The notes under the pieces: model-generated | Seen by the model: the letters and a program-made list of their open reading frames with translations, nothing else | Told to the model about the DNA's origin: nothing | Database searches by the model: none | Source of the DNA: Patescibacteria group bacterium | GTDB taxonomy: Bacteria > Patescibacteriota > Minisyncoccia > Phycocordibacterales > UBA9973 | Reading direction: 5' to 3' | Assembly: GCA_038063535.1 (NCBI GenBank) | Contig: JBBTUV010000001.1 | Coordinates: forward strand, 21,570 to 85,569 | Length of the DNA: 64,000 bases | Position numbers and translations under genes: made by a program | In this document: in pieces, positions 2,819 through 52,120 of the stretch | Layout: each line of letters opens with the position of its first letter | How positions within the stretch are numbered: position 1 is the first letter of the stretch

Positions 2819-3019
2819 TTATTTCGCCATGTAGGGCAGAAGTCCAAGGAAACGAGCGCGTTTGATCGCTTGCGCGAGCGCACGCTGGTTTTTCGCGGTA
2901 ATGCCGCTTCGCTTACGAGAAACAATTTTTCCGTTCGGATTGATGAACCTCAAAAGAATCTCGGTATCCTTATAGTCGATATGCTTGATATTATTGGCTG
3001 AAAAAAAGTCTTGGCGCAT
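2819..3019 (-). CDS. rpsR: 30S ribosomal protein S18
   Basis: 66 aa. Conserved KDTEILLRFINPNGKI..RKRSGITAKNQRALAQAIKRARFLGLLPY. Confidence 0.9.
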   Translation of the reverse strand: MRQDFFSANNIKHIDYKDTEILLRFINPNGKIVSRKRSGITAKNQRALAQAIKRARFLGLLPYMAK

Positions 3020-3025
3020 GGATTT

Positions 3026-3481
3026 CTAAAATGGAATATCTTCGGGGTTAATTTCGTCTTCTGGATATTCGATGGTGTCTACTTCTTCTGCCGCCGCTGA
3101 TTTAGCCGGAGCGGGCGCTCCTCCGCCACTCCCGCTTCCCCTTGGACCAAATTGTGTCCGCTCGGCGATAATCTCGGTGCGGTATTTCTTCTCACCACTA
3201 TTCTTGTCTTCCCAGCTTCTGGTCTGAATTCTTCCTTCAACTAGGATCGAGCTCCCCTTTTTCATGTACTGCGCCACTGTTTCCGCCCCTCGGCCGAAGA
3301 CCACAACATTATGATACTCCACCTGCTCTTGCCTCGCTCCCGCCTTATCCTTCCATACCCTATTGGTCGCGACCGAAAAAGAGCAGACCTTTCCGCCGGA
3401 GGGAAGAGCCCGGAGTTCCGGGTCGCGCGTAAGATTTCCTATGATGATTGCTTTGTTTAGGTTCATATTTTTATTCGGCAC
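3026..3481 (-). CDS. ssb: single-stranded DNA-binding protein
   Basis: OB-fold sequence MNLNKAIIIGNLTRDPELR...VEYHNVVVFGR. Gly-rich tail ending in acidic DIPF. Sits between rpsF and rpsR as in the classic operon. Confidence 0.9.
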   Translation of the reverse strand: MPNKNMNLNKAIIIGNLTRDPELRALPSGGKVCSFSVATNRVWKDKAGARQEQVEYHNVVVFGRGAETVAQYMKKGSSILVEGRIQTRSWEDKNSGEKKYRTEIIAERTQFGPRGSGSGGGAPAPAKSAAAEEVDTIEYPEDEINPEDIPF

Positions 3482-3962
3482 TAACCATCGCTTCTATTTC
3501 TTTATCTATCTCTTCCTTATTGATCGGAGCGGCCGGCTTGGCTTCCTCTTTCCTTCGGGTAACAAGCGGCTTTCGGTAAGGAATGTCCCGCATGAACCTT
3601 CGGCCGGAAGTAGCGCTCTCTCGAGTAGTCTTCACTACCAAAAAGCGGATAACCTCCGTAGTATCTGTGAATTTTTGCTTCACTTCCGAAATTTTATCCG
3701 TGGGAAGCGCGAATTTCACCCAGCCGAAATAGGCGGAATTGAATTTCCTGCGAGTGTTGCCGAGTATTTTTTCCATATTGTAAGCGAGCGGGATTTTCTT
3801 CGGAAGCTCGTCGGAGATGACCTCCGCCCCCGCCCCCGAAACTGCGTCCTTGAGGCCCGCATACACCCTCGCCACCTCCTCATCCGTCAGATCCGGAGCG
3901 GCAAGGTATCCGACTTCGTAGACGGTCGGAGCTGATTCAACTTTCGCTTCTTCTTCTGCCAT
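3471..3962 (-). CDS. rpsF: 30S ribosomal protein S6 with C-terminal extension
   Basis: YEVGYLAAPDLTDEEVARV... First gene of the rpsF-ssb-rpsR arrangement. 11-nt overlap with ssb. Confidence 0.75.
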   Translation of the reverse strand: MAEEEAKVESAPTVYEVGYLAAPDLTDEEVARVYAGLKDAVSGAGAEVISDELPKKIPLAYNMEKILGNTRRKFNSAYFGWVKFALPTDKISEVKQKFTDTTEVIRFLVVKTTRESATSGRRFMRDIPYRKPLVTRRKEEAKPAAPINKEEIDKEIEAMVSAE

Positions 3963-3985: not shown

Positions 3986-4801
3986 CTATAATTTGTAAAC
4001 TCTGCGGGCATTTTCGAGCAACTTCTCAGCAACTTCTGGCTCCGGCAAATTCTTAATTTCCGCAATCCTCTTTACTACTTCACGCACATAGATGGGTTCA
4101 TTGCGGCGACCGCGGTAGGGCACAGGAGTGACATATGGGGCGTCAGTTTCAGATAAAATCATATCGAGCGGGAAGGAACGAATAAGATCGTCGTAGTCAC
4201 GGGTGAAAGTAATAACTCCGGTAAAAGAAATGGTAAATCCGAAGTCGAGAAATGCTTTGGCCTCTTCGATGCTCCCGGCAAAAAAATGCACATCGCCCTT
4301 AATTTTTGCATGTTTTTTGAGAATCTCAAGCGCATCTGCGTATGCGGCTCGGACGTGAAGCATGAGAGGCTTCCCTACTTCATTGGCAAGCTCTATCTGC
4401 TCGATGAACATCTTTTTTTGCTTCTCAATTGAATCGGGATCGAGGCGGTAATAGTCTAGCCCGCACTCCCCCACTCCCACGACCTTCGGATTCTTGAGCA
4501 GTTCTCTGTAAGCAGCCTTGTCGAAAGATTCACCTCGGGAAGTGAACTCTGTTCCTCCCTCACCAAACTCATGCTTGTCGTGAAATGAAGCGCTGGTATG
4601 GATCGGGTGCAATCCCACAATCGCGTAAACCCCCTCCTCATATTTCTCGGCCATTTCTACCGCCTTTCTTGAAGTATCTATCTGCGTGCCAACATTTATG
4701 ACCCAAGTATCATTGTCGAGCGCTCGCTTAATGACCTCATCTCGATCTTCATCAAAAGCCGAGAAATTCACATGTGAATGAACATCAATGTATTTAGGCA
4801 T
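3986..4801 (-). CDS. tatD: TatD-family metal-dependent hydrolase/DNase
   Basis: IDVHSHVNF start, GLHP, ECGLDYY, LMLHVR, SETDAPYV motifs. Confidence 0.85.
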   Translation of the reverse strand: MPKYIDVHSHVNFSAFDEDRDEVIKRALDNDTWVINVGTQIDTSRKAVEMAEKYEEGVYAIVGLHPIHTSASFHDKHEFGEGGTEFTSRGESFDKAAYRELLKNPKVVGVGECGLDYYRLDPDSIEKQKKMFIEQIELANEVGKPLMLHVRAAYADALEILKKHAKIKGDVHFFAGSIEEAKAFLDFGFTISFTGVITFTRDYDDLIRSFPLDMILSETDAPYVTPVPYRGRRNEPIYVREVVKRIAEIKNLPEPEVAEKLLENARRVYKL

Positions 4802-11716: not shown

Positions 11717-12268
11717 TCATAAGTGCGTTTCCTTGAGCGTCTGGTTGATGAGCGCGAGTATCTCCCCTCTTCGCTCTGTCACGCCAGATACGAGCTCATT
11801 TATTTTACTCTCACCGATATATCCAAGGTGATGCAAAACTTTAAGGACAATTATTATTTCCGAATTCTGCATTTCCCCCCCACTCCCCACTTGCTCGAGC
11901 GCCGAAAATCCATCGAGGATTTCGAGGAAAAGCGGCTCGTTAGAGCCTTCCCCAGGAAGAAGACGTCGCAAGAGCCGAGCGATGTTTGAAACTATTTTAA
12001 AGACTTCAAGATTTCTCGAAAGATCTTCAAGTTTGCCGGTCGGCGCGGCGCTTCCGATCCGCCAAAAATCTCTGCCTTGCACTAGATCAATTTTTACGTA
12101 AGAGTAGTCCTGCAAAATGTAGCGCAGCTTCGAAGATATTTTCCGCACTCCCGACGCCCGCGCCGTCACCATGCCGAGCTCGCGGGTAAAAACGTAAAAA
12201 TATTTTCCATCCTCGCCGAAATTCCTGCTGCCCAAAATTATCCCTTCAGTATGATAAATGTGATGCAT
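11717..12268 (-). CDS. recO: RecO-like recombination mediator (short form, no zinc finger)
   Basis: N-terminal OB-fold pattern HTEGIILGSRNFGEDGKYFYVFTRELGMVTARASGVRKISSKL...LQ. Only 183 aa. Confidence 0.55.
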   Translation of the reverse strand: MHHIYHTEGIILGSRNFGEDGKYFYVFTRELGMVTARASGVRKISSKLRYILQDYSYVKIDLVQGRDFWRIGSAAPTGKLEDLSRNLEVFKIVSNIARLLRRLLPGEGSNEPLFLEILDGFSALEQVGSGGEMQNSEIIIVLKVLHHLGYIGESKINELVSGVTERRGEILALINQTLKETHL

Positions 12269-12906
12269 TACAAATCTTCTTCTTTTCCTAGTTCTAGTTT
12301 TTTGAATTCAATCCCGAGAGGCGGCAAAACATTTCCCGGCCATTTCCAAATGAAAGATGCCCACTCTTGGATAAACGCATCATGCACTGGAAAGGAAATT
12401 CGTGGTTTTAGGGCTTGGGCATAAAGGAGAGCGTCTTTCATCCGCATCCAGGGCCCAGCCACGGGTAGCGCCAGAATCTCAACGGGATGTCCAGGGTCCT
12501 CGAAGGCATCGCCGGGGTAGCAGAGCGAATCGATCATGTACCCGGTATTCTGCACCCGCCCCATCGATTCGTAAATTTCTGCGTGCAAATTGCCGAAGGA
12601 GCAAATAGCCACCCCGGAGATCTCTTTTTCTTGGCCTTTTTCAACTACCTGGTGGGTAATGCCCGCTTGGTCGAGGAGTTTCCCGACTGCGGTGTTGGTA
12701 ATGACAAGAGCTTTCGGGCTACTCTCAAGAACCTTTTTCAAAGTCTCAATGTGTAGATGGTCCCCGTGCTCGTGAGTAATTAAAATAGCGGTGATGTTTT
12801 CCTCTCTCTCTGCCCCCTTGGTAAAATCTCCCGGATCAGTCATTATCCTGACCCCTTCCTTTGGCTCCGCCACGAAACAGCAGTGCCCTATTTTTTTTAC
12901 CTTCAT
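12268..12906 (-). CDS. MBL-fold metallo-hydrolase
   Basis: ILITHEHGDHLHI (HxHxDH) plus downstream His/Asp ligands. 1-nt overlap with the recO-like gene. Confidence 0.75.
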   Translation of the reverse strand: MKVKKIGHCCFVAEPKEGVRIMTDPGDFTKGAEREENITAILITHEHGDHLHIETLKKVLESSPKALVITNTAVGKLLDQAGITHQVVEKGQEKEISGVAICSFGNLHAEIYESMGRVQNTGYMIDSLCYPGDAFEDPGHPVEILALPVAGPWMRMKDALLYAQALKPRISFPVHDAFIQEWASFIWKWPGNVLPPLGIEFKKLELGKEEDL

Positions 12907-12950
12907 CTACCTATTTTATCACAGATACTTTGCTTCTTCATTTCAAAAAT

Positions 12951-12990
12951 ACATATTATGCATTATGGGAGCGGCCGCTACCATTATATG
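12951..12990. repeat. ~40-bp direct repeat copy A (ACATATTATGCATTATGGGAGCGGCCGCTACCATTATATG), upstream of the MBL/recO-like operon
   Basis: Aligned by eye with copy B at 13571-13610. 26/30 identities in the core. Central NotI-like palindrome GCGGCCGC flanked by inverted CATAATGG / CCATTATG half-sites. Confidence 0.7.
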
Positions 12991-13007
12991 ATATATGATA
13001 AATGTAT

Positions 13008-13568
13008 CTATAGGTTGAAGTATTTTTCCAGTATATTTCTGTTAGTGATATCTTTTGCCAAGATTAGATGGACATACTTCCCGATCTCCCAGTAATTTGC
13101 AATAAAGTCAATCTCTTTCTGGCACCGAAAGGGATAAACCCAAACGCTGTCATTAAATTTAACAAATCCGAGCTCCTTCATTTTCTCCCTCAAGGAATCC
13201 CGAGCGGCCTTTTTCTTCTCGGGGATATCAAAAACTACAACACGAAAATTCCTATCCCATATCTTGGGCTCTTTGATTTTCATCTCTTCATAATTGAAGC
13301 GTAGATAAACTTTCCGCCCGTTCTCCGTCAAAACCAGCTTGTGATGCTTGCCTTCCTCTACAATTTCGATTAATCTCTGCTTTCTTAGTCTAAGAAAATA
13401 TGTTGAGATCCGCTTTGGCCTCTCATTTAATCCAAAAATTTCCTTTATAAAATATTTCGTGACCTTGTAACTTGCCCTCCGATTCGATAAAGCAACACTG
13501 ATACCTATTCCCACCCCAAGGGCACGGATGATTTTCCCGCTATTCGATTCCTTGTCAATTACTCTCAT
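13008..13568 (-). CDS. PaaX-like transcriptional regulator (N-terminal wHTH, C-terminal Cas2/VapD-like fold)
   Basis: C-terminal segment RVVVFDIPEKKKAARDSLREKMKELGFVKFNDSVWVYP matches the Cas2-fold region of the PaaX family. N-terminal part resembles a winged helix. Confidence 0.5.
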   Translation of the reverse strand: MRVIDKESNSGKIIRALGVGIGISVALSNRRASYKVTKYFIKEIFGLNERPKRISTYFLRLRKQRLIEIVEEGKHHKLVLTENGRKVYLRFNYEEMKIKEPKIWDRNFRVVVFDIPEKKKAARDSLREKMKELGFVKFNDSVWVYPFRCQKEIDFIANYWEIGKYVHLILAKDITNRNILEKYFNL

Positions 13569-13570
13569 TC

Positions 13571-13610
13571 CATCATATTACCATAATGGGAGCGGCCGCG
13601 TTCATTATAT
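13571..13610. repeat. ~40-bp direct repeat copy B (TCATATTACCATAATGGGAGCGGCCGCGTTCATTATATG), immediately upstream of the PaaX-like gene
   Basis: See copy A. Begins 3 nt upstream of the PaaX-like start codon on the minus strand. Confidence 0.7.
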
Positions 13611-13637
13611 GTAAAGTAGATGATAACAAGAAATTGT

Positions 13638-16600
13638 TCAGATCACTAACTTTTTGAGCTCTTCGATTATGGGCGCAACCGCTTCATCAGTGATATCTTC
13701 TGGCTTTATTTTGCAATGCGCAAAAATCTGCTTCTCGATTTCCGCTCCACAGGCAACAAACTTTTGTCGTTCTTCTTCCATGCCGCGATTTTTCCATTGA
13801 TACCGAACCCGTGCTTCTTCCATGCGTTCATCGTATGAGACCACCCCATTAGGATTAACTCGATTGTCAGAATAACTCATTATCTTCACATCCATCTCGC
13901 TAGAATCTCTATGTTCACAAAGTAAACTGAAACGATCCTGAGTTGCCAGATAAATAGCTTTTTCCGGTAAACCAATCTCTTTCATGATTTGGATTGCTGG
14001 CACGTGCTCATCATGCCCATACTTATTCACATACTCGCTTTTAACATTTTCCCAGTATTTTATTTCTTCCTTATCAAAATCGGAGAAATAAGTCAGATCG
14101 GTTTTAATAATATTCCCCATGTCGTGAAAAAGAGCCGCTAGTATCAGATCGTTTTTGTCGACCGGTGAAGAAAAATTATCGCAAATCAAAGTCACCACGG
14201 CTGCAACACGGAGCATATGCTCCTGTAATCGCGGAAATATCTTGTATTTCTTATAAATTTCCATTACCTTAAGCGGCATTTTGTCTCCAGGATTAAGGCC
14301 CAGTTTCTTCCTGCGATCCTGAAGTTCGCGCATAAATTCACGATACTCCCCTTCCATTTTTAACTCAGTAGTTATCTCAGTAGATAATTTAAATTCACTC
14401 CCCACCGTTACTTCTTTTACATTGAGTTCGTCTTTAATTAATTCAAGATATTCACTTGATAACTTTACGGACTTTATAACTTGCAACTCTTTGAGCGGTT
14501 GCCGCACAGGAATTCCGGCCTTCTGCCTAGCTTCAAGTCCCTGCGTCACAACCTCGCGAGTTATTCTCATATTCTTGAGAATATTAGAATGTATTTTCCT
14601 GGTCTTCGGCCACTCGCATATATGCACGCTCTCCTCATCTTTTTCTGTGCGCAGCTTAAGCCAAATATCTTCCGCAGTAAAAGGCGCAAACGGTGCCATC
14701 ACTTTTGCTAGGGTTTTTAGAACAAAATACAAGGTTTTCTTGGCATCTTTGTCTCCTTCTTTTATTCTTTCTCTAGAGCGGCGCAGATACCAGGTCGAAA
14801 GGTCGTTGATAAAATCACGAATCGTGCGTGTGGGCTCCATGAGTTTGTAATTGTCGAGCGATTCGGTAGTGAAATTTATGAGTTCATTAAGTCGACACAG
14901 GATCCATTGATCCAGAACATTTTTTGATTTTGGCTCTTCGTTTTTCTCTAAATTTTTATTTCGATATAATTCATAAAACGCAAGCACATTGTAAAGTAGC
15001 GTGAAAACTTGCTGGCGCAAGAGATGCACGGTCTTTTCGTCGAAATTTTTCGACTCTCCGGGCTGATTGACCGAATACATCCAGAGGCGCAAGGTGTCGG
15101 CCCCGTACTTACCAATCATCTCCCACGGGTCTACCACATTGCCCACAGATTTCGACATTTTCTTGCCCTGCGCATCGAGCAAATGCCCGAGGCATATCAC
15201 GTTTTCGTAGGCGCGGCCTCTTCCCATCAAAACCCCGACCGCGTGGAGTGTATAGAACCAACCGCGAGTCTGATCGATGGCTTCGGAAATATAGTCGGCC
15301 GGATATAAAATCTTTTTCGCATCGAAGGGATAGTGATCCTGCGCAAACGGCATCGCCCCCGAGTCGAGCCAGACGTCCATCACTTCTTTTACCCGCCGGA
15401 ATTCCTTGCCGTTCTTTTCCAATATGATTTCGTCAATATACGGCCGATGCAGATCAAGCTCGAAATCGTCATTGCGCGGAAGCGGGATTAATTTGACCGG
15501 CTTGACCTCGCCATTTTTGAAGAAATCTTCCGAAGAACTTTTAAGTACCATCGCTTCTCTTTCATTCCTGCCCTCCGCTGCTGAATGGAGCATCCAGAGA
15601 GAATCTTCATGCGCGACTATAAGAATTTTTTTATTTTTATAAGTCTTTTCTATTTCCTTTAGAAATTTTCCCACTCGCATCTTTACGTCATAAAGTGACT
15701 CGCCGCCCGGCGCTGCTTCTCTAAACCTGTTGCTAGGATTTGAAAAAGCTGCCCAATACTCTTTGATCGGCCGGCCCTCAAGATTTCCAAACCCGATTTC
15801 CCGAAGACGCTCGTCATAGACAACTGCGCTCTCAGAGAGTTTTAGTTCCTTTCGAACAATTTCCGCCGATTGGCGAGTCCGCTCTAGTGGAGAGGCAATA
15901 ATAAAATCAATGCTGTGCTTTTTAAGTTTCTCGGCGGAATTAATTACTTGTTTCTCGCCCTTCTGTGTTAGAGGATTCTTTGCGTTTGGATCGGAGCTCA
16001 CAAACCCTTTTTCGTTGCTCTCTGCTCCACCGTGGCGCATGAGGAGGTACTCGTTATTTGCACTCTTTGAATATTTTTTGAGCGTGGCCAGCGAATCGAT
16101 TACGATTTTCTCTCCGTCCTCTGCCATCCACACCGGCAAAGGGGTCCCCCAGTAGCGCTCACGCGATATTGCCCAATCCTTTACATCGCGGAGCCACTCA
16201 CCAAAGCGCCCCTCGCGGATATGCGCGGGCTCCCAGTTTATTTTTTTGTTTTCACTGATCAGTTTTTTCTTAATTTTTGGCTCCGACATCCGGATGTACC
16301 AAGAATCGCGGGCATAATATATGAGCCGTGTCTTGCATCGCCAGCAAAATGGGTATGAGTGGGTATAAGACTCTTTTGCAAAGACTAAATTTCTCTTTTG
16401 CAGGTCCTTCAGGATATCCACCGCAAGCACTTCATCCACTACTGATCTACCGGAGAGCCAGTCCGTTCCATCTATAAATTTCCCGTCTGGGTCCACTAAA
16501 TGCTGCTTGGGTAAACCGACTTTTGTCCCAAGCTCAAAATCATCCTGCCCATACATGACAGCGGTGTGCACGATGCCGGTACCTTCTTCGGTCGATACAA

Positions 16601-17483
16601 AATCCGCTGCGTAAACCTTGTATGCATTTCCTATATTCTCGGGATTTTTGTTTTTAAGAAACGGGTAAAGCGGCTCGTATTCCATACCGATCATTTCGCT
16701 CCCTTTGTGCTCGGCAATAATTTCGTAATTTTCAAGAACACTTAACCTGTCTTTTGCAAGCACAAAAATTTCTTCCCCAACTTTTGCTTCTACATAAATA
16801 ATATCTTTCCCCACAGCTAGCGCCACATTCCCGGGCAAAGTCCACGGCGTCGTGGTCCAAGCCAAAAAATACGCATTCGGGAATCCAATAATCTTAAATT
16901 TTGCCGTGACCGACAAATCTTTCACATCTTCATACCCCTGCGCGAGCTCGTGCGAAGAGAGCACCGTGCCGCAGCGCGGGCACCAAGGAACAACTTTGTA
17001 ATCCTTGTATAAAAGTTTTTGCTTGTCTACATGGGCGATGATGTTCCAAACCGATTCAATGTAATCATTCTCGTATGTTATGTATGGATCCTCCTGATCG
17101 ATCCAAAATCCGATGCGCTCGGTAAATTTGCTCCAGTTGTCAACCTGTTCCCAAACATTCTTTCGGCATTCATCGTTAAATTTCGCCACACCGTATTTCT
17201 CAATCGCTTTTTTAGAATTGAGGCCGAGTTTTTTCTCGACTTGGAGCTCGACCGGAAGCCCATGAGTATCCCAGCCACCCTTCCGGCGCACATGATATCC
17301 GCGCATGGTCTTATATCTGGGAATAGCATCCTTAAAAGCCCGCGCCTCGAGGTGGTGAATGCCCGGCGCGGCGTTGGCCGTCGGCGGACCTTCATAGAAA
17401 ACAAATTCTTTGCCACCCTTTTTGAGCGACTTTTCAAAAATTTTATTTTTCCTCCAGAATTCTAAAATTTCCTCCTCACGCAT
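13638..17483 (-). CDS. ileS: isoleucyl-tRNA synthetase with inserted histidine-phosphatase domain and C-terminal HD domain
   Basis: IleRS hallmarks: PPTANAAPGIHHLEAR (HIGH region), editing domain, WAISRERYWGTPLPVW, DVWLDSG, KMSKSVGNVVDP. Inserted at about aa 478-660: LLMRHGGAESN...SPLERTRQSAE...IVAHEDSL (RHG histidine-phosphatase/PGM motifs). C-terminal about 200 aa: H..(28)..LFHDMGN...D (HD-domain metal ligands). Confidence 0.9.
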   Translation of the reverse strand: MREEEILEFWRKNKIFEKSLKKGGKEFVFYEGPPTANAAPGIHHLEARAFKDAIPRYKTMRGYHVRRKGGWDTHGLPVELQVEKKLGLNSKKAIEKYGVAKFNDECRKNVWEQVDNWSKFTERIGFWIDQEDPYITYENDYIESVWNIIAHVDKQKLLYKDYKVVPWCPRCGTVLSSHELAQGYEDVKDLSVTAKFKIIGFPNAYFLAWTTTPWTLPGNVALAVGKDIIYVEAKVGEEIFVLAKDRLSVLENYEIIAEHKGSEMIGMEYEPLYPFLKNKNPENIGNAYKVYAADFVSTEEGTGIVHTAVMYGQDDFELGTKVGLPKQHLVDPDGKFIDGTDWLSGRSVVDEVLAVDILKDLQKRNLVFAKESYTHSYPFCWRCKTRLIYYARDSWYIRMSEPKIKKKLISENKKINWEPAHIREGRFGEWLRDVKDWAISRERYWGTPLPVWMAEDGEKIVIDSLATLKKYSKSANNEYLLMRHGGAESNEKGFVSSDPNAKNPLTQKGEKQVINSAEKLKKHSIDFIIASPLERTRQSAEIVRKELKLSESAVVYDERLREIGFGNLEGRPIKEYWAAFSNPSNRFREAAPGGESLYDVKMRVGKFLKEIEKTYKNKKILIVAHEDSLWMLHSAAEGRNEREAMVLKSSSEDFFKNGEVKPVKLIPLPRNDDFELDLHRPYIDEIILEKNGKEFRRVKEVMDVWLDSGAMPFAQDHYPFDAKKILYPADYISEAIDQTRGWFYTLHAVGVLMGRGRAYENVICLGHLLDAQGKKMSKSVGNVVDPWEMIGKYGADTLRLWMYSVNQPGESKNFDEKTVHLLRQQVFTLLYNVLAFYELYRNKNLEKNEEPKSKNVLDQWILCRLNELINFTTESLDNYKLMEPTRTIRDFINDLSTWYLRRSRERIKEGDKDAKKTLYFVLKTLAKVMAPFAPFTAEDIWLKLRTEKDEESVHICEWPKTRKIHSNILKNMRITREVVTQGLEARQKAGIPVRQPLKELQVIKSVKLSSEYLELIKDELNVKEVTVGSEFKLSTEITTELKMEGEYREFMRELQDRRKKLGLNPGDKMPLKVMEIYKKYKIFPRLQEHMLRVAAVVTLICDNFSSPVDKNDLILAALFHDMGNIIKTDLTYFSDFDKEEIKYWENVKSEYVNKYGHDEHVPAIQIMKEIGLPEKAIYLATQDRFSLLCEHRDSSEMDVKIMSYSDNRVNPNGVVSYDERMEEARVRYQWKNRGMEEERQKFVACGAEIEKQIFAHCKIKPEDITDEAVAPIIEELKKLVI

Positions 17484-27377: not shown

Positions 27378-28443
27378 TGCCTGGCAGAATGCCTTTCGCC
27401 AAAAACTCGAGTGCTGCTCCCCCGCCGGTTGAGATGAAGGAAAAATCATTTTCCAATTTCATTACGGATATTATTGCCACAGTGTCTCCCCCGCCGATGA
27501 TGCTTTTTGCCTTCGAGCCAGCCACGGCCTTTAATACTTTTTTCGTCCCCTTCTCTCCACCCACCTCATATTTGCCGAGCGGGCCATTCCAAAGGATGAG
27601 TTTAGCATTTTGGATGTAGGGCAGAAGTTTTTTTATCGTTTCCTCACCCACGTCAAGAATGGTTTCATTACTCCGCACTTCTCTTACTCCTCGGTTGATT
27701 AGTTTATTCCCCGCCTGGACCAAAACATCCTCGGGGATTATCAACTTTTTATTCTCGAGAATGTTCTTAAAATCGTAGATCGTTTTATCCACCAGTGACT
27801 GCCCAACCTCGTATCCCCTCGCCGCAAGAAGTGTGTTTGATAATGCCCCACCGATAAATACCTGATCGGCTAGCCCCAAATACTTCTCGATCAATGGTAT
27901 TTTGGTCGAGAATTTCGCTCCGCCTAAAATAAATAGAAATGGGCGCTCGGGATTTTTAAACGTGGTTGATAAATTTTCAATTTCCGCTTCCAATTGAAAT
28001 CCGGCATAAGCCGGCAATAATTTCGGCAGAAGCACGATGGAAGCATCTTCTCTGTGGTCCACGGGGAAGGCTTCGTTCACGTATATTTCACCGAGCTTTG
28101 CGAGGTCAGCCGCAAATGCCGGGTCGCAATTTTTCTCTCCGGGATCATTACGAAGATTTTCAAGCAAAGACACTTCTCCGTTCTCCAAACTCACGTCGTC
28201 GAACTTTGAAGGGAGATACTTATTGAGCACAAGGGAAACCGGTCGAAGGCTCTCCCCTCCTTGCCCAAGATGTGAAAGCAAAATGATTTTCGCTCCCATC
28301 TCTTTCAAAAAATTTATCGTCGGAAGCGTTTTTTTTATGCGAAAATCATCCTGGACGACGCCGTTTTCGATCGGCAAATTGAAATCGACTCGGACAAGGA
28401 TTGTCTTTCCCGCAATATTTTTTAACTCCCTAATGCTTCGCAT
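27361..28443 (-). CDS. pgk: phosphoglycerate kinase (start set at the internal Met; the ORF-track N-terminal 83 aa are judged non-coding)
   Basis: MRSIRELKNIAGKTILVRVDFNLP...LLSHLGQ. Matches the PGK N-terminus. C-terminal ATP-binding GGGDTVA. Confidence 0.85.
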   Translation of the reverse strand: MRSIRELKNIAGKTILVRVDFNLPIENGVVQDDFRIKKTLPTINFLKEMGAKIILLSHLGQGGESLRPVSLVLNKYLPSKFDDVSLENGEVSLLENLRNDPGEKNCDPAFAADLAKLGEIYVNEAFPVDHREDASIVLLPKLLPAYAGFQLEAEIENLSTTFKNPERPFLFILGGAKFSTKIPLIEKYLGLADQVFIGGALSNTLLAARGYEVGQSLVDKTIYDFKNILENKKLIIPEDVLVQAGNKLINRGVREVRSNETILDVGEETIKKLLPYIQNAKLILWNGPLGKYEVGGEKGTKKVLKAVAGSKAKSIIGGGDTVAIISVMKLENDFSFISTGGGAALEFLAKGILPGIKALS

Positions 28444-29192
28444 ATTTTTACCATCCCGGCGAATTCCGCCGGATCGAGACTGGCCTTGCCAGCGAGAAGT
28501 CCGTCCACTCCGCCATGCTCCAGGAATTCTCGCGCGTCCTTTGTGTTCGCCGACCCGCCATAGATAATCCGAACGCTTCCCGCAGTATCGGGAGTCGTTA
28601 TATCGGAAAGGACCTTGCGGATGAAGATCGTCATCTCTCGCGAGTCGGTCGGATTCGCATCCCGACGAATCGCGGTGGTAGAGAGCGCCCAAACCGGTTC
28701 ATATGCAATTATGACCTTCGGAATTAAATTTTTCGCGAGGCCGTCCAATCCCCCTTCGATTTGCGCTTTTACTATATTGAAATAACCGTGATCGACGCCC
28801 CGCTCATTTTCCCCGATACAGAGAATCGGGGTGAGCCCCGCGGCAAGCGCTCCTTTTACTTTTTTGTTGATAAGCGCATCTTCCTCGCCGAGCGCTCGCC
28901 TTTCCGAGTGTCCCAAAATCACATACCTGGCACCTAGTTCATAGAGCATCCCCCCGGAAACCTCGCCGGTGTAGGGCCCGACATCTCCCGGGAATGCATC
29001 CTGCGCCCCAAGCGTTACTTTTCGCGAGTACTTTTTAAGCGCCGGCAGATAGAGGAAAGGGGGGCAGATGACTATGTCCGTCTTTCGGATCGGGGGAAGA
29101 GATCTGGAGATTTTCGAGAAGAGCGAGAGCGCATCTTTTCCCGTCCGGGGATTCATCTTCCAGTTTCCCGCGAGAATTCTCCTTTTTGGCAT
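28422..29192 (-). CDS. tpiA: triosephosphate isomerase
   Basis: ILAGNWKMNP. Catalytic YEPVWAIGTG-like AYEPVWALST. GGSANTKDA. Confidence 0.9.
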   Translation of the reverse strand: MPKRRILAGNWKMNPRTGKDALSLFSKISRSLPPIRKTDIVICPPFLYLPALKKYSRKVTLGAQDAFPGDVGPYTGEVSGGMLYELGARYVILGHSERRALGEEDALINKKVKGALAAGLTPILCIGENERGVDHGYFNIVKAQIEGGLDGLAKNLIPKVIIAYEPVWALSTTAIRRDANPTDSREMTIFIRKVLSDITTPDTAGSVRIIYGGSANTKDAREFLEHGGVDGLLAGKASLDPAEFAGMVKICEALGS

Positions 29193-29231
29193 TGGTAAAT
29201 TATATCATAATGCGATAAAATTAAACGTAAG

Positions 29232-30548
29232 ATGCGACGAAACAGAGGCTTCACTCTGCTTGAGACGCTCGTCGGGAGCTTCGTTTTTCTCGTTGTCGCG
29301 CTGGCCGCCTATCGCGCTTTCGGGACGCTCATGGACGCGGTCGCCGCTTCCCAGTCGAAAGTCGCGGCCTCGGCGCTCGCGAACGAACAATTTGAGATAA
29401 TCCGTAATCTCCCCTATACTGACGTCGGCATCGTGGCGGGACTTCCGGCCGGGAAAGTACCAAGAGAGCAAGCGCTCGTGCGCGACGGTTATTCTTTCTC
29501 TGTTTTGACTACTATCCGCAGTTCCGACGACCCTTTCGATGGCACGATCGGAGGCAATCCGAGCGATACCTCCCCGGCGGACTACAAACTCGCGGATCTC
29601 GACATCACTTGCAACAATTGCAAGATCTTCACTCCGCTTAAGTTCACGACTCTGGTCGCTCCAAGAGCGCTTGAAACCGCAAGCTCAAATGGCGCGCTTT
29701 TCATCCAAGTTTATGATTCGGCGGGAGCGCCAGTACCCGATGCTTCCGTTCACATAGTAAACACCCAAACTGATCCGGACACGATTATCGACGAAGTCAC
29801 AGATAGCGGGGGCTGGTTGAAAATAGTTGACGCTCCGCCGGGAACGAACGCGTACAACATTTCCGCGACCAAGGCCGGGTACACCCTCGAGCAAACCTAC
29901 CCTTACGGAGGCGGAGCCGGACCCGACCCGATAAAGCCGGACTCGACCGTCGTCCTCCAGCAAGTCACGCAGATCGGATTTCAGATTGACCGGGAAAGTT
30001 CCCTCTCGGTTACCACTGTCGACGGAACCTGTGTGGCCCTCCCCTCCGTCGGATTCTCCTTGACCGGGACCAAGTTGATCGGTAATCCTTCGGTCCTAAA
30101 ATATCCGACCCAGAATTTCACCACCGACGCATCCGGGGCCTATTCGCTCTCGGATATGGAATGGGATACTTACGGCGTGCTTCTGACGAGCGGTACCTAC
30201 GACCTCGCCGGAACCTCGCTTCTGCCCAGCTTCGCATTAAATCCGAACGAAAATAAAGTTTTGCAGTTAGTGGCTGTCCCGCATGCAAGCTACGCGCTTC
30301 TGGTCACGGTAAAGGACTCGCAGAACGCTCCGATAAACGGCGCGACGGTGCACCTGGAGAAATCGGGATTCGATGAGACAAAAATCGCCGGGAGCGGTCC
30401 TTGCTCAACTCCAGGGCAGGTCTTCTGGAACGGACTTACAAGCGGCTCCTACACGCTTACTGTCTCCTACGCCGGCTACCAAGATTCCGTAAGCACGGTC
30501 GACATGTCCAGCGCTTGGCAAGAAAGGACGATAACTCTCAATCCCTAG
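29232..30548 (+). CDS. type IV pilin-like / pseudopilin protein with large C-terminal domain
   Basis: Prepilin class III signal MRRNRG|FTLLETLVGSFVFLVVALAA (G-1, F+1, E+5). About 400-aa beta-rich C-terminal region. Confidence 0.65.
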   Translation: MRRNRGFTLLETLVGSFVFLVVALAAYRAFGTLMDAVAASQSKVAASALANEQFEIIRNLPYTDVGIVAGLPAGKVPREQALVRDGYSFSVLTTIRSSDDPFDGTIGGNPSDTSPADYKLADLDITCNNCKIFTPLKFTTLVAPRALETASSNGALFIQVYDSAGAPVPDASVHIVNTQTDPDTIIDEVTDSGGWLKIVDAPPGTNAYNISATKAGYTLEQTYPYGGGAGPDPIKPDSTVVLQQVTQIGFQIDRESSLSVTTVDGTCVALPSVGFSLTGTKLIGNPSVLKYPTQNFTTDASGAYSLSDMEWDTYGVLLTSGTYDLAGTSLLPSFALNPNENKVLQLVAVPHASYALLVTVKDSQNAPINGATVHLEKSGFDETKIAGSGPCSTPGQVFWNGLTSGSYTLTVSYAGYQDSVSTVDMSSAWQERTITLNP

Positions 30549-30550
30549 CC

Positions 30551-31153
30551 ATGAAACTCCGCCATAAAAAAGGATTCGCTCTTATTGAAACCCTTTTTGC
30601 CGTTTCGATCTTTGTCCTCATCGTGATCGCGCTCGGGATGCTTGCAAGGAATATCTGGATTTACAGCTCCTACGTCTCGACCGGGCTTTCCGATTCTATA
30701 AACGGCAGGCGCGCACTCAAGCTCATGACCGCGGAGATCCGTACCGCTTCCACCGCCGATACTGGCGTCTACACGATCGCAGTCGCATCCGGAAATTCTT
30801 TCACTTTTTACTCCGATATCGACGGCGATGTGCTCAAGGAAAAAGTGAGATACTTTCTCGCCGGCGCGAACTTGCAAAAGGGAGTGACCAAGCCCACTGG
30901 CTCTCCGCTCTCTTACAATCCGGCAAATGAGGTTATCTCAACTCTGATCGGAAACGTGACAAGCGCGAACATTTTCAGCTATTACGACGAGAACTACGAC
31001 GGAACTACGGCGGCGCTTTCTTTCCCGGTTAACATCGCTCTTATCCGGCTCGTGAAGATCACTTTCACTACCGACAAAGACCCGAACCGTGAGCCCGCTC
31101 CCTCGACTTTCACCACTCAAGTTTCCATACGCAATCTTAAAGACAACCTATAA
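30551..31153 (+). CDS. type IV pilin-like protein (start at the internal Met of the ORF-track ORF)
   Basis: MKLRHKKG|FALIETLFAVSIFVLIVIALG prepilin cleavage/methylation motif. Starts 3 nt after the preceding pilin gene. Confidence 0.65.
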   Translation: MKLRHKKGFALIETLFAVSIFVLIVIALGMLARNIWIYSSYVSTGLSDSINGRRALKLMTAEIRTASTADTGVYTIAVASGNSFTFYSDIDGDVLKEKVRYFLAGANLQKGVTKPTGSPLSYNPANEVISTLIGNVTSANIFSYYDENYDGTTAALSFPVNIALIRLVKITFTTDKDPNREPAPSTFTTQVSIRNLKDNL

Positions 31154-32607
31154 TGAAATGCTCAATTTACAATTTTCGATTTTCAAAGCGGAATCGAGGG
31201 ATGATAATCGTGCAGACGCTCGTGTTTGCAAGCATAGTCGTTGTGATCATGGCGGCGCTGGCGAGCTATTCCGCGACCGCCATCCGCACGGGTAGAACCG
31301 CCTTCAACCGCGAGCAGGCGCTGCAGGCGGCAGAAGCCGGCATCGACTACTATCGATGGCACCTCGCGCACGCCCCGAGCGATTACCAAGACGGTACCGG
31401 TGGGGCCGGGCCGTACATTCACGACCTAAAGAATCGGAGCGGAACGACGGTGGCTGAATTTTCCTTGGATATCACCGCGCCGCCCGTCGGCTCGACTATC
31501 GTAAAGATAGAATCGACCGGTGCTTCTTCTGCCGACCCGAGTTACGTACGAAAAGTGGAGAGCTCCGTCGCCAAGCCTTCGATCGCTAAATATGCGGTCG
31601 CCGGTAACAACGCTTTCCGTTTCGGCACTGGCACGGAGGTTTTTGGACCGATCCACGTGAACGGCGGCATCCGCTTCGACGGGCTGGCACACAATTTGGT
31701 CACAAGCGGCACGACCAGCTACACCGATACTGACTATGACGCTTGCACCGGCGCAAACTCTTACGGTGTGCACACCTGTGTTTCCCCGGCCGACCCGACT
31801 TACCCCACCGCTCTGCCGGTGCGTCAGGATGTTTTCGAAGCCGGACGCCTGATCAGCCAGCCGACCATAGATTTCGGAGGATTCACTACCGACCTTGCGA
31901 CTCTAAAGAGCGACGCTATCGCAAACGGCTTTTACCGGGATGTCGCCGGATCGGGATACGTCGGTTATCATATGGTGCTAAAGACGAACGATACTTTTGA
32001 TCTCTATAAGATTAATTCCTGGGCGAGCTTGGGAAGCTGCTCAAGCTCTCCTTCCGGCACTCTGAGCTGGAGCGTGGGCGCACAAACGCTCGAGGGTAAT
32101 TTTCCCTTCCCTTCGAACGGAATAATCTTCATCGAAGACCATGTGGTAGTGGACGGACAGATCAATGGCGCCAGGCTTACCATTACAGCCGCGGACCTCC
32201 CGGTTCCTTCCAACCCGAACAATTATAAAAACATTCTGACCAATAATGACCTCTCTTACACCAATTATGACGGGTCGGATTCAATCGGATTGATCGCCCA
32301 AGGCGGAGTGATGGTGGGGCTCCAGAGTGAGAACGATCTTAAGATTGATGCGGCTCTGGTCGCTCAAAACGGAAGAGTGGGAAGATTTTACTATTACGGC
32401 TCGAGTTGCACCAACAAGACCCGCTCCATCATTTCCCTCTACGGCATGATCGCTTCCTATTCCCGATACGGCTTTGCCTACACCGACGGGACCGGCTACG
32501 TGACCCGCAGCATCACTTACGATGCGAACCTTCTCTATGCCCCGCCTCCTTCTTTCCCGCTCACTTCGAGCCAATACGAGATACTCTCCTGGCAAGAAGT
32601 GAAATAA
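31153..32607 (+). CDS. PilX-like minor pilin / pseudopilin (large)
   Basis: N-terminal hydrophobic segment RNRG|MIIVQTLVFASIVVVIMAALASY, with Gln instead of Glu at +5. This is third in the pilin gene run. Confidence 0.45.
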   Translation: MKCSIYNFRFSKRNRGMIIVQTLVFASIVVVIMAALASYSATAIRTGRTAFNREQALQAAEAGIDYYRWHLAHAPSDYQDGTGGAGPYIHDLKNRSGTTVAEFSLDITAPPVGSTIVKIESTGASSADPSYVRKVESSVAKPSIAKYAVAGNNAFRFGTGTEVFGPIHVNGGIRFDGLAHNLVTSGTTSYTDTDYDACTGANSYGVHTCVSPADPTYPTALPVRQDVFEAGRLISQPTIDFGGFTTDLATLKSDAIANGFYRDVAGSGYVGYHMVLKTNDTFDLYKINSWASLGSCSSSPSGTLSWSVGAQTLEGNFPFPSNGIIFIEDHVVVDGQINGARLTITAADLPVPSNPNNYKNILTNNDLSYTNYDGSDSIGLIAQGGVMVGLQSENDLKIDAALVAQNGRVGRFYYYGSSCTNKTRSIISLYGMIASYSRYGFAYTDGTGYVTRSITYDANLLYAPPPSFPLTSSQYEILSWQEVK

Positions 32608-33825
32608 CTATTGGATCTGGTTCAAGACCGAGTAGAGAGGCGAGATCATCGAAATCGCGAAGAACCCGACCGCGGCGCCGATCACTATCATAAGCAGAGG
32701 CTCGATGATAGTGGAGAGATTTTTCGTCCTATTTTCGATCTCCTCCTCGTAAAAGGCGGCGACTTGAAGTAGCATATCCGAGAGCTTGCCCGTTTCTTCC
32801 CCAACCTCGATCATCTCTGACATCATGATAGGGTAAAGATGGGTGTTTTCCTCAAAAGTCTTTGAGAATGACGACCCCTTCTCCACTGCCGTTTTCGCCT
32901 CTCGGAGCACTTTTTTGTAGTAAATGTTCTGAACTACGTCCTCAGTTATCTCAATTGCACGGGTAATCGGAACTCCAGCCAAAAGGAGCGAGGACATGGT
33001 ACGGGTGGTCCGGGCGGTGTTAAGCTCTTTTGCCAAGTTACCGATCACTGGGAGATGCACCGTAAGAAAGTCAATATATTTTCTGAGAAAGGGCGCTCGC
33101 AGGAGCGCTACCATGCCGAGCGATCCAAGAATAATGATAAGAAAGGTGATCACCAGGTGCTCGGAGAAAAAGTTCCCCATCCAGATGATCGCTTGGGTGG
33201 ACTTCGGAAGCGTCACCCCGAGCTCCTTGAAGGTGCTCGCAAGCGTGGGCACCACGAAAGCGAACATGAGTACCCCGATGATCACCATCGCGGAGAGTAT
33301 CACCCCGGGATAGACCAGTGCGCCGTGGATCTTTTTGTTAAGAGAGTGCGCTTTTTCAAGGTTGCCGCCGATATCAGTGAGTGCACCGGCTAGGTTCCCC
33401 GACTCTTCCCCGGCCCGCACCATCGAGACGAAGAGCGCAGAGTAGACTTTGGGAAATTTGGCAAGTGCAGTGGAAAAAGGCTCACCGGTGTTTATATCGT
33501 TCGCAAGCGACTTCAAAATCTTCTGAAGCGCGGCGTTTTTTGTCTGCTTCTCCAAGACCGCGATCGCCCGTGCGAGGGAGAGCCCCGCCCGAAGCATTCC
33601 GCTCAGATTCTTGCAGAAAAGAATGAGCTCCGCCTTACTGATATGTCCGAGGGCGCTTTTGAGAAGCGCCGCGAAGTCGAGGCTATGCGCCCCTTTCTCT
33701 TTGATCGATATGGGAGTCGAGCCCCTTGAACGCAGTTCTTTGGCAAGCGTAAATCGGTCGATCGATTCTAAGAGCCCTGTATAGACTTCTCCGGTTTTTG
33801 ATTGAGCTTTGTAAGCAAAAAGCAT
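32608..33825 (-). CDS. pilC: type IV pilus assembly platform protein PilC / GspF family
   Basis: Two GspF repeats, three TM segments, conserved C-terminal PLYSVLNQI. Confidence 0.85.
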   Translation of the reverse strand: MLFAYKAQSKTGEVYTGLLESIDRFTLAKELRSRGSTPISIKEKGAHSLDFAALLKSALGHISKAELILFCKNLSGMLRAGLSLARAIAVLEKQTKNAALQKILKSLANDINTGEPFSTALAKFPKVYSALFVSMVRAGEESGNLAGALTDIGGNLEKAHSLNKKIHGALVYPGVILSAMVIIGVLMFAFVVPTLASTFKELGVTLPKSTQAIIWMGNFFSEHLVITFLIIILGSLGMVALLRAPFLRKYIDFLTVHLPVIGNLAKELNTARTTRTMSSLLLAGVPITRAIEITEDVVQNIYYKKVLREAKTAVEKGSSFSKTFEENTHLYPIMMSEMIEVGEETGKLSDMLLQVAAFYEEEIENRTKNLSTIIEPLLMIVIGAAVGFFAISMISPLYSVLNQIQ

Positions 33826-33828
33826 ATC

Positions 33829-35562
<1,734 letters not shown>

Positions 35563-35584
35563 TACTTCTTATTATAACAAAAAA

Positions 35585-35602
35585 AATCCCAAGATAGGGA
35601 TT
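35585..35602 (-). terminator. intrinsic-terminator-like hairpin plus T-run only about 17 nt upstream of the pilB start codon (minus strand)
   Basis: AATCCC-tatctt-GGGATT followed by TTTTTTTT on the minus strand. It may terminate the upstream small ORF or act as a leader attenuator for pilBC. Confidence 0.45.
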
Positions 35603-35686
35603 AAAAAATCTGATATAAAATACAAATCCCCTTTTCCTGCACTGCATGGAAAAGGGGGCGTCTTTGATTCTTTTTTGAGACCTCTC

Positions 35687-35836
35687 CTATGGCCACAACT
35701 TCATGGTCCATAGGGCAATCTCGTCGGCAAACACATGCACCAGCGTAAAGCCGGTGCCCAACGCCAGGGCGCAGAGCCCTGTGAACTCTAGAGGTCTGTC
35801 TTCGTACAACCTTTCGACCTTTTCCCAAATTCTCAT
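35687..35836 (-). CDS. possible small membrane protein (49 aa)
   Basis: Good SD GGAGGT 6 nt upstream of ATG (MRIWEKVERLYEDRPLEFTGLCALALGTGFTLVHVF...). One hydrophobic helix. Bracketed by two terminator hairpins. Confidence 0.25.
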   Translation of the reverse strand: MRIWEKVERLYEDRPLEFTGLCALALGTGFTLVHVFADEIALWTMKLWP

Positions 35837-35934
35837 CGAGCCACCTCCAGTTGGGTTGCCTCCTACCATCTCCTTGCATTATATCACACTTGATATACAA
35901 AAGTCAATAGGCAAAAGCCTTTATTTTGCAACGA

Positions 35935-35958
35935 AAAAAGCGACTTATGTCGCTTTTT
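35935..35958 (-). terminator. Rho-independent terminator downstream of the SH3b-like secreted protein gene
   Basis: AAAAAGCGAC-ttat-GTCGCTTTTT. Perfect 10-bp stem flanked by A/T runs, about 20 nt after the stop. Confidence 0.6.
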
Positions 35959-35978
35959 TCTCTAAACGGCATTGCTAG

Positions 35979-37955: not shown

Positions 37956-37967
37956 TTTGAACTTCCC

Positions 37968-41846: not shown

Positions 41847-41955
41847 GTAAATAATTATAGCACAGAATAATCACGTAATTAATGCAAGCGGAAGTGTGGA
41901 AAAGAAGAATCCCCGCCTGGTATGACGGGGTTCTTGGACCGACCTTGTCGGGCCA

Positions 41956-43449: not shown

Positions 43450-43524
43450 AAGTTGTAGAAAGAGCGGGCGCGGGATTGCGCCTTTTCAGTCTTATTTAAC
43501 GCCTAAATTCAGCTAAAATCAAGG

Positions 43525-43553
43525 TTTTCCACGTGTGCACAGCAAGTGGAAAA
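43525..43553. promoter_or_regulatory. 8-bp-stem dyad (TTTTCCAC-N13-GTGGAAAA) in the 5' region of the HExxH-motif gene
   Basis: Read directly. Lies between the divergent HExxH-motif gene and the GIY-YIG gene. Confidence 0.3.
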
Positions 43554-43676
43554 GTCAAAATATGCTTGAAACTAAAGGGTTTGCGTTCGCAAGAAAAGCA
43601 TGATAGTATACCTGTATATAGTCCTCGAAAGCGGGACTATTTTAGTTAGGAGCGAAGTGAGTAACTACCCTGTTAA

Positions 43677-43952
43677 ATGATTTCAAGTAAAGGAAAATTT
43701 TACTACATATATGTCCTTCTATCTCACGCGGATAAGAAGTTCTATGTAGGATATGCAAATAACTTGAAATCACGATTTGAGCAGCACGTGAAAGGCTCAG
43801 TCCTTTCTACGAAAAATCGAAGACCGTTAGAATTAATTTACTCTGAGGCCTGCCTTGATAAACGCGACGCAATGCATCGAGAAAGATACCTGAAGACATT
43901 TCACGGTAAACAATTTCTGAGAAATAGGCTCAAATCGTATTTAACAGGGTGA
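43677..43952 (+). CDS. GIY-YIG domain nuclease-family protein (UPF0213/YhbQ-like)
   Basis: FYYIYVLLSHADKKFYVGYANNLKSRFEQH...R..E. This is the GIY-(10)-YVG, R, E signature. Confidence 0.8.
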   Translation: MISSKGKFYYIYVLLSHADKKFYVGYANNLKSRFEQHVKGSVLSTKNRRPLELIYSEACLDKRDAMHRERYLKTFHGKQFLRNRLKSYLTG

Positions 43953-43990
43953 AGATTTTTATACTCATTACCATTCGTTAAAAATCATTC

Positions 43991-45133: not shown

Positions 45134-45151
45134 TAAATTATAATTAAAGAC

Positions 45152-47146: not shown

Positions 47147-47147
47147 T

Positions 47148-47786: not shown

Positions 47787-47806
47787 TTATTAAAAACATA
47801 AATTTT

Positions 47807-52099: not shown

Positions 52100-52120
52100 A
52101 GAATTTTTCTCACCATCAAA

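Follow-up and report, generated by a model that had tools for sequence, protein, structure and literature searches.

PaaX is a winged helix-turn-helix (wHTH) repressor that has a motif for dimerization and, at its C-terminus, a domain that binds phenylacetyl-CoA (reviewed in PMC9493321). Its recognition site is a long split palindrome, TGATTC(N27)GAATCA, and it represses its own gene by steric hindrance of RNA polymerase at the promoter (PMC9493321). The subject of what follows is a gene for a minimal PaaX-type protein, 186 amino acids (aa) long, that lies between two copies of a palindromic repeat in a Patescibacteria contig from groundwater (Hainich); the stretch of that contig that was analysed (64 kb, probably a small fraction of the genome) is referred to as the window. 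Two further kinds of described system serve as points of reference. Repressors such as LacI (with operators O1, O2 and O3), GalR (OE and OI) and DeoR employ auxiliary operators and loop the DNA; in IS200/IS605 elements and REP-RAYT units a small gene is flanked by palindromic hairpins.

The reading that we favour, with a probability of roughly 0.7, is that the PaaX-type repressor encoded between the two repeats has these as its cognate operators; it would be autoregulated and would, in addition, have a second site past its own stop codon. Self-repression as such is nothing unusual; the novelty lies in the layout, shared across the family, of a gene placed between two operators, and in an apparent readout of DNA next to a Cas2-like domain. 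In the literature searched, no paper links PaaX to the Patescibacteria (the Candidate Phyla Radiation), and none combines PaaX with Cas2. These bacteria are largely uncultured, and comparison of their sequences here gives a very large family of ~185-aa proteins a concrete proposed operator.

A PaaX-type gene between paired palindromes

The features on which the argument turns are these (positions in the window):

12957..12992: downstream palindrome, proposed operator O-down, dyad centre between 12974 and 12975
13008..13568, minus strand: gene for the minimal PaaX-type protein, 186 aa (by PF20803 and structure model)
13575..13583, minus strand: extended -10 element TGGTAATAT (by sequence and family alignment)
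13578..13613: upstream palindrome, proposed operator O-up, dyad centre between 13595 and 13596
13599..13604, minus strand: -35-like hexamer TGAACG, within the inner part of O-up's left arm (inferred from the promoter consensus)

A repeat search recovers the pair as a 30-nt direct repeat, 12961-12990 and 13582-13611, with 26 of 30 positions identical and the copies 621 bp apart. The first-pass annotation, made from the letters of the window, had called the copies near-identical and had asked that their alignment be scored formally against chance: in 100 dinucleotide-preserving shuffles of 12000-14500 the best pair of 30-mers has 19-23 matches, so that the resemblance exceeds every shuffle. The internal dyad symmetry that it described is equally real, since each copy is an imperfect palindrome around GCGGCCGC (12971-12978; 13592-13599). 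Both copies are intergenic, one on each side of the 186-aa minus-strand open reading frame (ORF). On the coding (minus) strand the arms of O-up are ATATAATGAACGCGG and CCGCTCCCATTATGG, plus ~3 bp of flank per side; those of O-down, whose centre is 33 nt past the stop codon, are ATATAATGGTAGCGG and CCGCTCCCATAATGC. A -10-like TAATAT follows each palindrome on the coding strand. The "extended similarity in catattat" that had also been remarked on is accordingly there, and its explanation is simple: it is the reverse complement of this trailing hexamer.

The pair has no third member in the window. Exact ATGGGAGCGGCCGC occurs at these two positions and nowhere else in the 64 kb, matches to it with up to 3 mismatches are otherwise at chance level, and R1, a covariance model of the palindrome family run over the window with its filters off, finds the same two sites only: O-up at 13576-13615 (32.6 bits) and O-down at 12955-12994 (29.5 bits). 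These scores place the window's copies in the family register and among its more divergent members. GCGGCCGC recurs at 55063 and 56183; these were considered as further copies and rejected, as both are within coding sequence and lack arms. At the end of ileS, 18 nt (13666-13683; ATTATGGGCGCAACCGCT) match the left part of the repeat at 83%, which is probably chance, since the covariance model does not detect them.

What kind of protein does the enclosed gene specify? Its Cas2-like domain (residues 103-174) matches Pfam PF20803 (PaaX_M) with E 1.4e-19 and 70.4 bits against a cutoff of 24. AlphaFold2, given an alignment of close homologues, yielded a poor model (predicted local distance difference test score, pLDDT, 59; weak fold matches), which was replaced by one from a deeper, diverse alignment (pLDDT 85; predicted template modelling score 0.70): a winged helix at about residues 30-82 (helices 30-45 and 54-63, hairpin 67-80), then a ferredoxin-like domain. 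The best PDB match of this model in Foldseek is PaaX of E. coli W (8a39; E 6.7e-5, 194 columns), followed by PaaX-like 3l09, Cas2-like 7vxr, Cas2 5zyf and 3kfw, with more Cas2 and wHTH proteins lower down; sequence searches of the PDB missed PaaX, which was reached by fold search only. The winged helix has profile matches to the wHTH proteins TubR and MarR, and none of the Pfam wHTH models is above threshold for the 186-aa protein. Lowering the Pfam threshold to E 10 brings up only PaaX_M and a marginal wHTH match; there is no HUH/Y1 domain. PaaX proper is another matter: the equivalog model TIGR02277 aligns at residues 44-171 with its positions 29-151 of 279 and scores 33.5 bits against a cutoff of 264.55, PaaX_C (PF08223) gives no match even at E 10, the protein stopping at residue 186 directly after the Cas2-like domain, and there are no paa genes among the neighbours (ileS, the gene for a metallo-β-lactamase (MBL)-fold hydrolase, recO and glyS). 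Because it has the fold of PaaX, a low equivalog score and no PaaX_C, the protein is the N-terminal two-thirds of a PaaX-type repressor rather than a PaaX orthologue. The original designation of the gene between the repeats as a PaaX-like, Cas2-fold regulator is upheld, as are those of its neighbours (Pfam identifies the isoleucyl-tRNA synthetase, IleRS, on the upstream side and an MBL-fold hydrolase and RecO on the downstream side).

The Cas2 connection can be followed somewhat further. The motif FDIPE...R...SVW aligns with YDVS...R...SAF of Cas2, including the Asp at the catalytic position, and this residue, D114, is invariant in 94 diverse family members. The Cas2 model TIGR01573 matches residues 108-144 only, with 19.2 bits, under its cutoff of 24.5; PADLOC Cas2 models give weak matches (E 3e-4 to 0.02). 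The window holds no tandem or CRISPR-like array and no cas1, and the genes flanking the unit are housekeeping genes. Close homologues are all ~186 aa long, 60-79% identical, and come from Nomurabacteria/Paceibacterota-type genomes; the wider family runs to 4104 clusters at 50% identity (E ≤1e-3), nearly all of 170-230 aa among the matches listed, and all members examined are in Patescibacteria-type loci.

The palindromes go with the gene. The comparison comprised 9 genome loci, 80 metagenome loci and a few extra, ~90 in all, with orthologues 54-79% identical to the window's protein; ~10 kb on each side of the gene were scanned in the relatives (962 kb of loci), and site statistics were taken on a dereplicated set of 48 genomes. 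In all of the first nine loci a palindrome of ~30-36 bp is present both just upstream and just downstream of the orthologue. A strict test, which scores presence by the centre of the palindrome, finds the upstream copy in 76/81 loci and the downstream copy in 71/84; most loci that fail it have a different centre, CGCTACCGC for example. From the dyad outwards the half-site reads G1 G2 C3 A/G4 n5 n6 R7 A8 T9 A10 A11 Y12 R13 C14 n15 A16 T17, and the full site is about ATA-n-CATAATAG-nn-ACGG/CCGT-nn-CTATTATG-n-TAT (the stroke marks the dyad): that is, half-sites CATAAT...ATTATG ~16 bp apart and a conserved (A/G)CGGCCG(T/C) centre, with T9, A10, A11 and the CGG nearly invariant. The two centres are 606-667 bp apart. 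The relative orientation of the two copies follows no consistent pattern (20 direct, 16 inverted and 12 ties among the 48 genomes).

R1 run over the 962 kb and the window matches almost only at the two flanks of the gene. The search for further copies that the first-pass annotation had proposed thus returns nothing more in the window and three extra sites in the relatives. One is in locus L030, ahead of a paralogue. Another, at 19740-19778 of L091, is a third family-type palindrome ~10 kb from the regulator, ahead of a gene truncated by the end of the locus, and its spacing is that of a promoter site (right arm, TATTGA, 7 nt, ATG); it may mark a distant member of a regulon. In L047 the downstream palindrome and ~45 nt of the promoter region that follows it are duplicated (1815-1920 and 2935-3045, ~90% identity) on the two sides of a 195-aa ORFan without a Pfam match, giving the order palindrome, regulator, palindrome, ORFan, palindrome, serine hydrolase. 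A separate peculiarity is confined to the clade of L029, L036, L037 and L039, in which GCGGCCGC is replaced at both flanks by a non-palindromic centre, CGCTACCGC or GCGGTAGCG, oriented the same way in the two copies of L029 and oppositely in those of L036 and L037; symmetric readout by a dimer does not account for it.

Distant paralogues in the same loci (21-48% identity) are bracketed by palindromes of their own, which are different ones: TTAGCATTAGTGTACGA and CCGTTTGTTAATGCTA as left and right arms at both sides in L043, for example, and TTGTAATATTATACGCTA and TAGCGTATAAATTTACAA in L091. The two sides match at 16/20 or better for 8/14 paralogues vs 7/146 control ORFs. Could the pair nonetheless be a dispersed repeat of the REP or MITE (miniature inverted-repeat transposable element) kind, or a chance similarity? 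Short AT-rich palindromes are, after all, common in intergenic DNA. With a match above all 100 shuffles, two copies in 64 kb, and copies at both flanks in ~90 loci, this explanation is barely credible; shuffles and scans by pattern and by covariance model refute it within the sequence available.

Promoter, co-variation and the reader of the palindromes

The upstream copy is in strict register with a promoter. In 50/76 related loci, as in the window, exactly 27 nt separate its centre from the ATG, and the layout in the related loci is always the same: a 15-nt right arm ending in TG-N, TAnnAT, 6 nt, ATG. In the window the TG of TGGTAATAT is the outermost part of the right arm of O-up; GATGGA (13569-13574) follows, and then the ATG. 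TA..(A/T)T occurs at this register in 40/48 dereplicated genomes. The -35-like hexamer, TAGACA in the family consensus, spans left-arm positions 9-4 and lies 18 nt ahead of the -10 box. The upstream copy thus covers the -35 box and the spacer and shares the TG of the extended -10 element, which argues that it is an operator for autorepression.

The -10 placement implies a transcription start at the A of the ATG, that is, a predicted leaderless mRNA. The layout TGnTAnnnT, 6 nt, ATG recurs at 13 or more other long-ORF starts in the window, that of the MBL gene included, and so appears to be the ordinary promoter type of this genome. (A side note: the element, often in the form TGATATAAT, precedes the start by 5-7 nt, mostly 6, leaving no space for a Shine-Dalgarno sequence; examples are the gene starts at 7301, 11704, 12906, 13568, 21936, 26941, 29192, 41846, 47154, 60747, 62504 and 63914.) As a promoter model for such genomes, TGnTAnnnT-6 nt-ATG would imply leaderless transcripts.

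Co-variation ties the sites to the protein. Among the orthologues, at the variable site positions 4, 14, 15, 16 and 18, the upstream and downstream sites of a genome have the same base far more often than shuffled pairings do (0.60-0.71 vs 0.27 at position 15). Of all protein columns, residue 120 (K/R) shares the most mutual information with DNA position 4 (G/A): Lys120 goes with G at position 4 from the dyad, as in GCGGCCGC, and Arg120 with A, as in ACGGCCGT. In 8 cases K is paired with G and in 1 it is not; for residues other than K these numbers are 2 and 38. On a tree built without that column parsimony requires 7 changes at residue 120, or about 7 independent switches. The window's protein has K120, and G stands at all four of its half-sites. 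For the outer positions 14 and 15 the best co-varying partners are residue 56, with which the predicted recognition helix begins, and the wing-tip residues 72-76. Since the first helix of the Cas2-like domain contains residue 120, which co-varies with position 4, that domain is suggested to sit over the dyad centre. The Lys120/Arg120 pairing offers a predicted specificity rule, which bears on how a Cas2 fold contacts DNA.

These correlations also bear on a quite different proposal, that another factor binds the palindromes, or that they are generic bidirectional promoter elements, and that they only happen to stand beside the gene. Each arm does hold a -35-like and a -10-like hexamer, which would allow symmetric reading as a promoter, and a promoter scan picks the TATAAT in the left arm of the downstream copy. 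However, the palindromes are specific to their paralogues, co-vary with residues of the adjacent protein and are found almost only at the flanks of such genes in the sampled sequence, and -10 boxes on the bottom strand are rare (13/48 and 9/48). We regard this explanation as very unlikely.

A case can also be made for RNA. Here the main action of the palindromes would be as hairpins, with transcription of ileS ending at the upstream copy and that of the PaaX-like gene at the downstream one, which between convergent genes would serve in both directions. Many downstream copies are perfect or near-perfect palindromes of 30-36 bp with very stable predicted hairpins (z -4.8 in L009, z -6.5 in L011); arm pairs are complementary at 85% vs 72% in shuffles, with 143 vs 61 double-sided changes; and in 15/48 genomes the downstream copy lies between convergent stop codons. 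Against this stand several results. Shuffled sequence is as stable as the window's downstream copy (z 0.09). The mismatches carry no strand signal, with 76 G.U and 66 A.C upstream, 64 and 59 downstream. The symmetry extends through what would be the loop, and variant centres are palindromic still (CACGTG, CCTAGG, CTATAG). Specific bases are conserved (T9, A10, A11, CGG), position 4 co-varies with a protein residue, T-runs that might provide a U-tract are at variable distance, and a terminator scan is at chance, its sole match being on the plus strand, antisense to the genes. If the mRNA is leaderless, the upstream copy is outside the transcript altogether. A search of 12800-13750 against Rfam 15 has no match at E ≤1. 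The hairpin as the main function is therefore unlikely in our judgment; the reader of the palindromes would instead be a DNA-binding protein of two-fold symmetry, for which the lack of a strand signal, the symmetric centre, the conserved bases, the downstream copy's chance-level stability in the window and the predicted leaderless mRNA all speak. A secondary effect as terminator or roadblock is possible.

The first-pass annotation had the regulator also controlling the adjacent MBL-RecO unit through the downstream copy. In the related loci the downstream centre is 18-72 nt past the stop codon whatever gene follows (MBL hydrolase, a 170-aa ORF, NUDIX, serine hydrolase, RecO or a convergent sigma-70 gene), and the following gene is co-directional in 31 and convergent in 15 of the 48 genomes. 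A -10-like hexamer comes after the downstream copy in 13/48 genomes vs 40/48 for the upstream copy, independently of the orientation of the next gene (8/31 co-directional vs 5/15 convergent). A role as promoter or operator of the next gene was rejected on these grounds, and the downstream copy, which is not a promoter, goes with the regulator gene and not with the next one. In the window the MBL gene has a promoter of its own:

12913..12921, minus strand: extended -10 promoter TGATAAAAT of the MBL gene, then AGGTAG and the ATG at 12906

The centre of O-down is ~68 bp upstream of that ATG, and the palindrome does not overlap the MBL promoter. With any gene in the next place and no promoter character of the site, control of MBL-RecO is therefore unsupported as a general rule.

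How, then, might repression operate? Taking the operator geometry together with the known behaviour of PaaX, we infer that the protein, with its winged helix and its Cas2-like dimerization domain, is probably a dimer on the ~36-bp dyad; that on the upstream operator the dimer would mask the -35 box together with the spacer and the extended -10 element's TG, excluding RNA polymerase and thereby regulating its own gene negatively; and that residue 120, in helix 1 of the Cas2-like domain, or its immediate surroundings would read the dyad centre. The dimer would also bind the equivalent dyad past the stop codon. There it might cooperate with the upstream site, looping out the ~620-bp gene, or it might form a protein roadblock or terminator; in either case the unit would be insulated from its neighbours. 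Of the claims made on first inspection, the main one, for a dyad-symmetric autoregulatory site, is well supported by comparison: conservation over ~90 loci, promoter register, paralogue-specific sequences and protein-DNA co-variation all point to it.

This account does not go unopposed. If the only sites detected in the sequence scanned flank the repressor's own gene, it is hard to see what physiological output the repressor would have. None of the tests run explains what the downstream site does. The inner arm positions 5 and 6 vary between sites, yet are partly complementary in downstream copies, which a model of pure protein readout does not predict. The invariant D114, finally, hints at a function beyond dimerization.

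Distribution, mobility and other features of the window

Most orthologues sit between recO and either ileS or a gene for an HD domain, a gene that the window has as a fusion to ileS; one subgroup adjoins a convergent sigma-70 gene (with a DsbA-like gene at the other side in L014), and others are elsewhere. The ileS-recO stretch itself varies by genome, its components being an HD gene, the regulator, a 170-aa ORF, MBL, NUDIX, serine hydrolase and a 69-aa ORF. Among loci anchored on RecO, the closest relative for which the ileS junction is available, L098 (MBL 72%, RecO 63% and IleRS 70% identical), lacks both regulator and palindrome: at its junction (2740-2830) the ileS stop is 2 nt before the MBL ATG. 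The MBL promoter of L098, TTGATAAAAT, lies within the last part of the ileS coding sequence. L099, L101 and L083 are also without the unit at this site. The unit of palindrome, gene and palindrome is, on this comparison, an indel, because it is missing from the orthologous site in the closest relative.

Is it also a cassette with att-like ends, as the first-pass annotation had suggested in the alternative? The indel half of that proposal survives, through the empty site in L098 and the other contexts elsewhere. The att half does not: no repeat is left at the empty site, so that of the expectation "gene absent in relatives, one copy remaining" the absence is borne out and the leftover repeat is not; tests by longest common substring and by local alignment find no flanking duplication in 47/48 genomes; and the repeats are not dispersed. 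There is no integrase among the neighbouring genes. The genome that stands apart is L014 (and L053, which is the same), in which a perfect 53-bp direct repeat, 3870-3922 and 4626-4678, surrounds the whole unit with a period of 756 bp. This repeat, unique among the 48 genomes, is the 3' end of the convergent sigma-70 gene, and could be a recent insertion or duplication, or an effect of assembly.

One can take the thought further and regard the unit as a small mobile element or the descendant of one, with the palindromes as its ends, bound, paired and perhaps cut by the wHTH-Cas2-like protein. The gene is always accompanied by both palindromes, occurs in at least 4 genomic contexts and is absent in L098, L099, L101 and L083; there are several paralogous units per genome; the direct repeat of L014 lies outside the unit, and in L047 a duplicated downstream palindrome and promoter region surround an inserted ORFan; and the Asp at the Cas2 catalytic position is invariant. 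On the other side, the paralogues within a genome are old (21-48% identity) and near-identical copies are not seen; orthologues keep the ileS...recO position where the neighbouring proteins have diverged to 50-57% identity; flanking duplications are missing from 47/48 genomes and the empty site has no scar; and a host-type promoter, in exact register, is joined to the upstream end. Association with phages was considered and rejected: 2.9 million viral contigs gave one weak match only. That the unit is a portable, possibly selfish module, an unrecognized minimal mobile element or its domesticated descendant, whose protein would pair and perhaps nick the palindromes and which would have spread into over 2000 clusters (50% identity) in public genomes and metagenomes, seems to us very unlikely. 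With old paralogues and with orthologous positions stable across deep divergence, active transposition is unlikely; over evolutionary time the unit nevertheless behaves like a portable block.

Some other features of the window and its relatives can be recorded here. The IleRS gene (13638-17483, minus strand, 1281 aa) has a His_Phos_1 domain (residues 480-641) inserted in the catalytic core, an insert that is also present in L099, L101 and L102, and an HD domain fused at the C-terminus (~residues 1088-1197); the HD part stands as a gene of its own, of 215-220 aa, in L010-L012 and L047, and L098 lacks it. At 52116-52145 and 35932-35961 there are strong palindromes (TCAAAAAATCCCCTTGAGGGGATTTTTTGA and CGAAAAAAGCGACTTATGTCGCTTTTTTCT) flanked by runs of A and of T; they look like bidirectional intrinsic terminators, unrelated to the repeat pair. 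The G+C content is ~0.44 at 12001-16000 vs 0.52-0.57 at 28001-48000, a marked difference within the contig.

Comparison with known systems

A constant second operator past the stop codon is unusual for an autoregulator, and if it served as a roadblock or as a loop anchor it would be a simple means of insulating a gene within such genomes. The nearest precedents each share part of this arrangement.

Cas2 and VapD are ferredoxin-like nucleases, and in the Cas1-Cas2 integrase Cas2 is the dimer that contacts DNA. Residues 103-174 share their fold, and the alignment of the motif with its catalytic-position Asp and the weak profile matches point the same way. Unlike Cas2, the window's protein is below the family cutoff, has no cas1 or CRISPR array in the window and is fused to a wHTH; a nuclease role would be hypothetical. 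With the IS200/IS605 and REP-RAYT units it shares a size of ~0.7 kb, a single small gene, an imperfect palindrome just inside each end, and palindromes specific to the lineage of the encoded protein. It differs in lacking an HUH/Y1 domain and dispersed copies in the sampled sequence, in the stable synteny of its orthologues, and in an upstream palindrome merged with a promoter.

The resemblance to LacI, GalR and DeoR is one of operator layout: two operators of the same dyad a few hundred bp apart, one over the promoter and one downstream. Here, in contrast, the pair encloses the whole gene of the regulator and moves with it, and looping would be our conjecture from the layout.

PaaX of the phenylacetate catabolon (E. 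coli and Pseudomonas; 8a39, 3l09) is the best structural match. The order of domains is the same, an N-terminal winged helix and then a Cas2-like dimerization domain; homology is also seen in sequence, through PF20803 and TIGR02277; the operator is long, with widely spaced inverted half-sites (TGATTC(N27)GAATCA there, CATAAT(N16)ATTATG here); and in both cases it lies over the regulator's own promoter. What sets the window's protein apart is the missing PaaX_C, the missing paa neighbours and the equivalog score (33.5 vs 264.6 bits); a conserved dyad centre that is seemingly read near residue 120 of the Cas2-like domain; and, with a leaderless promoter and a Patescibacteria host, a second putative operator that follows the stop codon throughout the family.

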